Shown here piece by piece: positions 41,385-41,745 of a stretch of 64,000 bases of DNA (position 1 is its first letter; every line of letters begins with the position of its first letter). The DNA is taken from NCBI GenBank assembly GCA_964016885.1, contig OZ024749.1:26660001-26724000 (forward strand). Reading direction: 5' to 3'. Source of the DNA: Eledone cirrhosa. Its lineage: Eukaryota. Below the pieces are notes generated by a model. That model made no database searches and was not told where the DNA came from. It saw only the letters and a list, made by a program, of their open reading frames with translations. Position numbers and translations under genes: made by a program.

Positions 41385-41745
41385 ATATCGTTTTCGGTGC
41401 ACCCAGCCGAATAACCCACTCGATATGCAAATTGGGCTACTCAGCCGTTAATATGCATAAGGTAAGTATATACGTTCAACAATCTGGCAGGAAGGTATAC
41501 GTTGCTGACGATAGCTAATAAGCTTGAAACTAGTACAGCGTTCCTTTGTCAGTGTTGAACAAACGAGCAACGATGGTTGCTGGACACTACGGCTTAATAC
41601 AGGATGTTTGTTTACAAACACATCGAGCATTATAATAAATGTTCGGTGAATCCATACGTACATATATATATGTGTGCATGTATGTATATATATATACATA
41701 CTACTGTACGTCTGTATACATATATGTATGTACGTGTACATACTG
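41385..41745 (+). mobile_element. Diverged monomer of the 466-bp hammerhead element (a further 3'-end fragment lies at about 50000-50100, minus strand)
   Basis: Colinear similarity to 28503-28900 (tatcgttttcggt, atatgcaaatt, gtcagtgttgaacaaa, ctactgtacgtctgtatac). Confidence 0.8.
41499..41541 (+). ncRNA. Hammerhead ribozyme in a diverged monomer of the 466-bp family
   Basis: acgttg-CTGACGA-tagctaataagctt-GAAA-ctag-TA-cagcgt; core intact while the flanks diverge. Confidence 0.85.

Follow-up and report, generated by a model that had tools for sequence, protein, structure and literature searches.

Several described elements come close to the repeat reported here. Like it, the metazoan non-LTR retrozymes, as outlined in PMC7229834 and 10.64898/2026.07.22.740005, are noncoding, low-GC units of a few hundred bases that occur in tandem or alone, carry a type I hammerhead, have highly self-paired RNA, and are found alongside Penelope-like elements (PLEs). 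The passages of these papers drawn on here propose mobilization by Penelope without naming a promoter or showing Penelope end marks, leaving both the transcription of animal retrozymes and the enzyme that moves them unsettled. Newt satellite 2 (Coats, Zhang, and Epstein 1994, cited in PMC2220036) is likewise a hammerhead repeat, with a reported internal snRNA-type promoter; according to that citation it is read by Pol II, whereas the match described below is to the host U6/U6atac/MRP class and not to the U1/U2 class. The schistosome satellite Sm-alpha (Ferbeyre 1998, cited in PMC2220036) combines a type I hammerhead with a reported internal Pol III promoter. Neptune-clade PLEs, as presented in 10.1101/2021.04.23.441226, PMC11167929, and PMC4209133, share with the present element inverted and tandem insertions, (TA)n targets, a one-end tail that arises from two internal priming sites, and hammerheads, which in those elements lie in the terminal repeats. 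Compared with the PLEs of these reports, the present element encodes no protein, carries a canonical rather than a minimal hammerhead, and has a tail of ∼60 nt instead of 30 to 40 nt.

The window analyzed here is a 64,000-nucleotide stretch of contig OZ024749.1 from Eledone cirrhosa. The focal copy within it (Table 1) is a young solo copy of a noncoding type I hammerhead repeat, a non-LTR retrozyme. This repeat class is already known; what is seen here is the U6-type motif, the tailed and tailless ends, and the fused Penelope tail. Expression and cleavage have been shown for metazoan retrozymes in PMC7229834 and 10.64898/2026.07.22.740005, whereas the E. cirrhosa element is described here from its sequence. 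Taken jointly, its identity as a retrozyme and its carriage by Penelope are very probable. A host U6-type motif inside the unit provides a precise promoter candidate, and the carrier is evidenced directly in the genome by one insertion that combines a Penelope end with a retrozyme end. Retrotransposition normally costs an element its external Pol III promoter; retention of such a promoter via ribozyme processing would, if true, be a distinct solution.

Table 1. Features of the focal copy and related features, in positions of the window
Feature	Position	Strand	Remarks
Sister subfamily A (466-bp unit) array	27588..29376	.	inverted arm ends with tail; tandem arm ends tailless
(TA)n microsatellite, insertion target	40713..41292	.	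family copy ends abut (TA)n
Inverted ∼92-nt terminal tail of autonomous Neptune-like Penelope element	41293..41385	-	fused to retrozyme; 1-nt microhomology at 41386
Retrozyme copy, subfamily B (420-bp unit)	41386..41744	+	unit boundary to tailless end
12-mer with octamer (41425-41432)	41424..41435	+	matches host U6/U6atac/MRP proximal element; 5′ hairpin arm
Imperfect inverted 12-mer copy, hairpin 3′ arm	41448..41459	+	predicted fold
TATA-like box	41467..41472	+	42 nt after octamer start; start inferred near 41497
Extended helix prolonging stem I	41474..41560	+	fold
Type I hammerhead	41494..41543	+	predicted cut after 41535
UAU bulge	41496-98	+	hammerhead part
Stem I	41499-41504 with 41536-41541	+	ACGUUG / CAGCGU
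Core CUGACGA	41505-41511	+	hammerhead part
Stem II	41512-25	+	U·U at base
GAAA	41526-41529	+	hammerhead part
Palindromic two-pair stem III	41529-34	+	hammerhead part
CUAGUA	41530-41535	+	hammerhead part
5′ strand of long-range covarying helix	41587..41593	+	columns 59-65 with 307-313; partner in tail, absent from focal copy

An earlier note on this DNA had described the copy as clearly diverged from the 466-bp unit. The divergence is real (75% BLAST identity over 396 columns), but the copy differs from the subfamily B majority at only 5 of 359 positions, has close relatives (39 other full-length matches at 97 to 99% identity among the 40 candidates scored out of 1,460; query 41383-41660), and belongs to a subfamily with its own 420-bp unit. 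Thus, it is a young member of sister subfamily B and not a decayed 466-bp unit. The 31-nt core has 25,179 exact matches in the 3.0-Gb genome compared to 0 for the reversed control, and the focal ribozyme region folds with a z score of −3.27 (0 of 200 shuffles folded equally well), which together indicate that the motif is not a chance occurrence. When the B-type 5′ stem-I arm is added to the core, 7,508 genomic matches are found. A hammerhead pattern containing the G10.1-C11.1 pair gives 12,955 matches (control, 27), and these take in subfamilies C and D, which are homologous to A and B along the unit at 60 to 64% identity, as well as a Penelope terminal repeat. The element has the sequence properties of a metazoan non-LTR retrozyme: the units are 414 to 502 nt long, noncoding, and low in GC, are present as both arrays and solos, and contain one hammerhead each and no LTR. 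A check of open reading frames (ORFs) found no long ORF at the focal site.

CUGANGA, GAAA, and CUAGUA, which the note had listed as kept, are all found in the focal copy, and the motif combines the CUGANGA core, GAAA, and NUH with three helices of which helix I is open, as in type I hammerheads. At G10.1-C11.1 it departs from the canonical pair: 21 of the 28 rows aligned below, including the focal copy, have U·U, and the seven C/D rows have G-C. Stem I of the focal copy consists of 6 bp with a three-base bulge, an arrangement that Sm-alpha is also said to have, and in the 466-bp unit its strands are ACGGUG and CAUCGU. Pair 41502:41538 is U·G in the focal copy and G·U in the 466-bp array, so the reported stem I swap is real, although the base that changes is the fourth, one letter from the capital in the note's acGgtg. 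A scan against Rfam gave no match at the gathering score. In PMC7229834, a U·U at the base of helix II is reported for axolotl HHR_Amex2, together with weak cleavage of the monomer, and a layout with a palindromic two-pair stem III is described in PMC4209133 as needing a dimer. Self-cleavage of the E. cirrhosa motif is predicted and would probably take place in a dimer held together by the palindromic stem III.

Covariation was analyzed in an alignment of 27 of the 38 distinct copies plus the A copy of the window (28 rows); the 11 copies outside it are mostly near-identical B copies, and 2 have a point change in the octamer. The hammerhead pairs are formed in 94.3% of 420 cells, compared to 82.6% in shuffles, both-side changes number 46 compared to 13.2, and the covariation score is 0.313 compared to 0.102 (0 of 500 shuffles in each case), with the caveat that cell-count measures of covariation are inflated by the relatedness of the rows. 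Slid-control pairings reach 28 to 48%. Both-side changes occur in three of six stem I pairs and three of five stem II pairs, and the stems covary across subfamilies that are 62 to 96% alike. Hence the covariation that the note had proposed to look for among aligned family members was detected by three measures, but not by two others, as neither the number of pairs with both-side change (6 vs. 5.0 in shuffles; 155 of 500) nor the number of extra pair types (10 vs. 9.8; 322 of 500) exceeds shuffles. In a set of 18 whole monomers, changes on both sides were seen for 20 of the 74 predicted pairs, with one covarying helix joining positions ∼250 nt apart, and circular monomers fold with z scores of −6.1 to −11.9 (five monomers, 40 shuffles each).

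The swapped pair itself is G·U in eight rows, U·G in eight, U-A in seven, A-U in three, and U·U in two, and it is paired in 77 of 79 copies selected only for an intact core. Mapped on a tree, these states require four changes, the minimum, and are nested in the order G·U, A-U, U·U, U·G, most steps carrying starred support; the direction of these changes depends on the root. The swap, which had been read as a double substitution, went instead by single steps, one of them unpaired (U·U), and the graded subfamilies record a base pair altering stepwise through a mismatch. Because it passed through A-U and an unpaired U·U, the swapped pair alone is weak evidence, and support for selection on RNA structure comes from the whole stem set. 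Such selection, as the note had suggested, is supported by covariation of the stems, but it acted on the source lineages and not on the focal copy (differences at 5 of 359 positions).

The octamer ATGCAAAT, described earlier as conserved upstream of the ribozyme in both versions, is present in the focal copy and in the 466-bp array, where it lies at 28543, 29009, and 28020 (minus strand). The internal promoter of newt satellite 2 reportedly includes an octamer as well. When A and B are compared, the octamer (8 of 8 positions identical) is not clearly above its flanks (30 of 39 and 56 of 65), so the evidence for its conservation rests on the distant subfamilies: between A and C/D, the 12-mer is identical at 12 of 12 positions compared to 16 of 29 in the upstream flank and 7 of 11 in the downstream flank. 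The run TATGCAAATT, which contains the octamer, is the longest that is invariant over the eight subfamily majorities, exceeding the catalytic runs. Point changes in the 12-mer are found in 3 of 18 single copies of the whole-monomer set, and contigs of four sequencing runs (kind unspecified) show the same variable positions and no listed octamer variant.

The same 12-mer is found in five of six host type-3-class promoters examined, those of three distinct U6 genes, U6atac, and MRP. In these promoters (for U6atac, the best copy), the octamer lies at −76 to −78 and the TATA box at −30. The 12-mer is absent from the RNase P gene, which carries a U1/U2-type motif in its place, and from scattered U6 and U6atac copies that are seemingly retroposed or interrupted. 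On the host profile, the four extractable subfamily units score 14 to 21 bits (host leave-one-out, 13 to 19), and the four retrozyme copies of the window are four of the top five among 360,068 background positions. A TATA-like box follows the octamer at a near-constant 41 to 42 nt, and 30 nt beyond it, within one base, lies a pyrimidine-A step in eight of eight monomers despite indels between TATA and ribozyme. The 12-mer motif, judged by these matches, probably acts as a promoter. The earlier idea of an internal promoter is thereby strengthened by the likeness to U6, U6atac, and MRP, but several features, among them the location of the motif in a hairpin arm (see below), run against it. Octamer-to-TATA spacing differs from the 46 to 48 nt of all five host promoters, and no positive TATA-like score is obtained in the retrozyme at 46 to 48 nt. 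The host distal element, which occurs in the three U6 promoters and was not found in those of U6atac or MRP, is absent from subfamilies A to D. Finally, a T6 run closes the B unit and would be expected to halt Pol III before the next ribozyme; the first run of at least four T lies 273 to 351 nt past the predicted start in eight of eight monomers, a distance that is not significant against dinucleotide shuffles (P 0.34 to 0.80). As a separate observation, subfamily B lost 8 nt after the TATA-like box (41466-41474), whereby the small hairpin of A is gone and the predicted start shifts into the stem-I bulge.

The spacing mismatch and the absent distal element would also be accounted for if, in the same Penelope-carried retrozyme, the octamer were kept as RNA, as a hairpin or a protein site, with transcription by host read-through and an incidental likeness to U6. 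Indeed, the 12-mer has a conserved pairing partner in the 3′ arm (11 of 12 identical between A and C/D; 91% of cells paired), and the hairpin has a high pairing probability in the monomer folds. Yet this hairpin shows no both-side change in its 12 pairs and is not unusually stable (z of −1.54), the octamer C is retained though unpaired in 15 of 28 rows, and the 12-mer coincides exactly with a motif derived independently from host promoters, with a TATA-like box after it at an almost fixed distance. We therefore regard a purely RNA-level role as unlikely.

If the 12-mer and TATA block is a promoter, the polymerase that it would recruit has to be considered. In fly snRNA genes, spacing switches the polymerase. 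The retrozyme spacing is 4 to 6 nt below that of the host Pol III-class genes, the templates exceed one unit (see below), and with Pol II the terminator would cease to be a problem; for newt satellite 2, Pol II transcription from an snRNA promoter is reported (PMC2220036). A switch to Pol II through shorter spacing is nevertheless a distinctly improbable explanation here, as nine distinct host U1/U2 promoters lack the 12-mer (no octamer at a shared place; best 12-mer scores of 2.6 to 10.1 bits) and the host U1/U2 profile finds nothing in the retrozyme. With the TCAGT-centered element at −57, the U1/U2-type profile scores A to D no better than shuffles. A newt-like Pol II snRNA promoter modeled on host U1/U2 was rejected. 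A vertebrate-like PSE seen by eye ∼150 nt downstream of the octamer was dropped, since host promoters contain no such motif. We lean slightly toward Pol III as the polymerase that would use the 12-mer. A literature search at index level retrieved no description of a U6-type promoter in a retrozyme or of cephalopod U6 promoters.

Two further observations concern host-type promoters. Common to the U1, U2, and RNase P genes are TCAGT, near −57, and a distal element resembling TTACCTCCCTT (loci L131-L183 and L214-L251), and the RNase P gene of the host may be of the Pol II type. A 310-nt hammerhead family (L052:2273-2893) contains an 11-mer resembling the distal element of host snRNA genes, located 200 nt before a CCAGT (host spacing, 201 to 222); a U1/U2-type promoter in this family was unsupported, with a profile score of −23.6 bits.

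The ends of the insertions point to the carrier. Retrozyme copies have their 3′ ends at one of two sites that are separated by ∼60 nt, and at either site the end is joined to (TA)n. In the set of 25 two-ended insertions, a tailed end is combined with a tailless one in 22 (of 23 classifiable), both ends are tailed in 1, and 2 are unclassified; the autonomous element shows the one-tail pattern in 18 of 29 loci. A tail on one end only is given as a Penelope signature by Craig et al. (10.1101/2021.04.23.441226) and is explained in PMC11167929 by two internal priming sites. The inverted and tandem arms, the one-end tail, and the AT-rich target of the retrozyme are all those of a Penelope-mobilized element. 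Of 81 arms, 74 extend 46 nt or more upstream of the core, past the cut site and the predicted start, indicating that the templates were multimers or circles and not simple start-to-terminator transcripts. The 5′ ends of the arms show no pile-up at the predicted start.

At the focal insertion, the copy ends tailless at 41744 and its other end is fused to a Penelope tail with no intervening (TA)n, whereas other neighbors are nested through (TA)n. The tail (41293-41385) has 39 other genomic matches at 98 to 100% identity. In loci L013/L014 it comes after the 3′ UTR of a GIY-YIG-type ORF, and in L201 it stands before the ORF start; the L201 ORF is 96% identical to that of L101. The focal junction is the only clean tail-to-retrozyme fusion seen, plus one direct ORF-to-retrozyme junction, in L123. 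The focal insertion obeys the one-tail rule with a tail taken from the autonomous element, which suggests priming on two different RNAs. In L123 (3380-3430), an older retrozyme copy directly abuts, with no (TA)n between, an inverted fragment that codes for a Penelope endonuclease. Pieces of the partner ORF contain reverse transcriptase (RT) motifs, a CX2-5CxxC linker, and GIY-YIG-type motifs. Searches of Pfam, PDB, and Atlas gave no name for the partner protein; assigned from motifs and layout as Neptune-like, it fits the clade as described by Craig et al.

Many copies adjoin Penelope ORF fragments, and Xenopus retrozymes are stated to be related to pLTRs (10.64898/2026.07.22.740005), as would be expected if the repeat were a mere pLTR of an autonomous Penelope family. 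In the junctions read, however, (TA)n or different terminal repeats part the ORFs from the repeat, and in the loci examined the A to D unit is never the flanking repeat of an ORF. The dispersed two-armed insertions with fixed ends favor reverse transcription and likewise speak against a satellite spread at the DNA level. We find it hardly credible that the repeat is such a pLTR or satellite with no RNA cycle. The C unit was considered as a pLTR of the ORF in L070 and rejected, because the two are separated by (TA)n and a further terminal repeat.

It is moderately probable that the focal copy is a solo retrozyme whose transcription likely starts from a U6-type host promoter within the unit and whose insertion was likely the work of Neptune-like Penelope enzymes. 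The 12-mer and TATA box would start transcription just upstream of the ribozyme, and read-through into the next unit followed by self-cleavage, probably as a dimer, would give a unit-length RNA that now holds the promoter and could be circularized. The Penelope RT would prime at two fixed sites, from both strands of the cut (TA)n target; at the focal insertion, one strand may have been primed on the tail site of the Penelope RNA and the other on the tailless site of the retrozyme. With only one ribozyme, the focal copy could not itself release unit-length RNA. Since insertion in vitro did not require ribozyme cleavage in the assays described in PMC11167929, the circle step is one that we infer. 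The more specific proposal, that a captured external U6-type Pol III promoter is carried in the intermediate by ribozyme cleavage of read-through transcripts and that Penelope primes two RNAs, is put forward tentatively.

Other Penelope-related sequences were observed in the window and beyond. At 27140-27560, there is an inverted pair of another Penelope terminal repeat, with a hammerhead-like motif of the minimal type on the minus strand at 27326 and on the plus strand at 27466; this repeat is also found ahead of an ORF start in L070 and L041, and the A array is nested in (TA)n beside it. More Penelope-type terminal-repeat remnants, several with minimal hammerhead-like motifs, are located at 30270-30520, 29370-29500, 35655-35700, and 40620-40710. 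An A-like retrozyme unit is represented at 49960-50140, and a C-like one at 8440-8525, in each case by an isolated 3′ end with its tail. The 3′ UTR of the Neptune-like partner (L101:1190-1300, minus; L185-L213) has by eye a hammerhead-like fold in which CAGAAGA replaces CUGANGA and U·U is found at the base of stem II. Finally, 14610-19834 contains two long ORFs, one of 587 aa and a second of 1163 aa in which motifs resembling those of endonucleases and RTs are seen; this element is LINE-like, and fragments of its 3′ end lie at 12772-14184.
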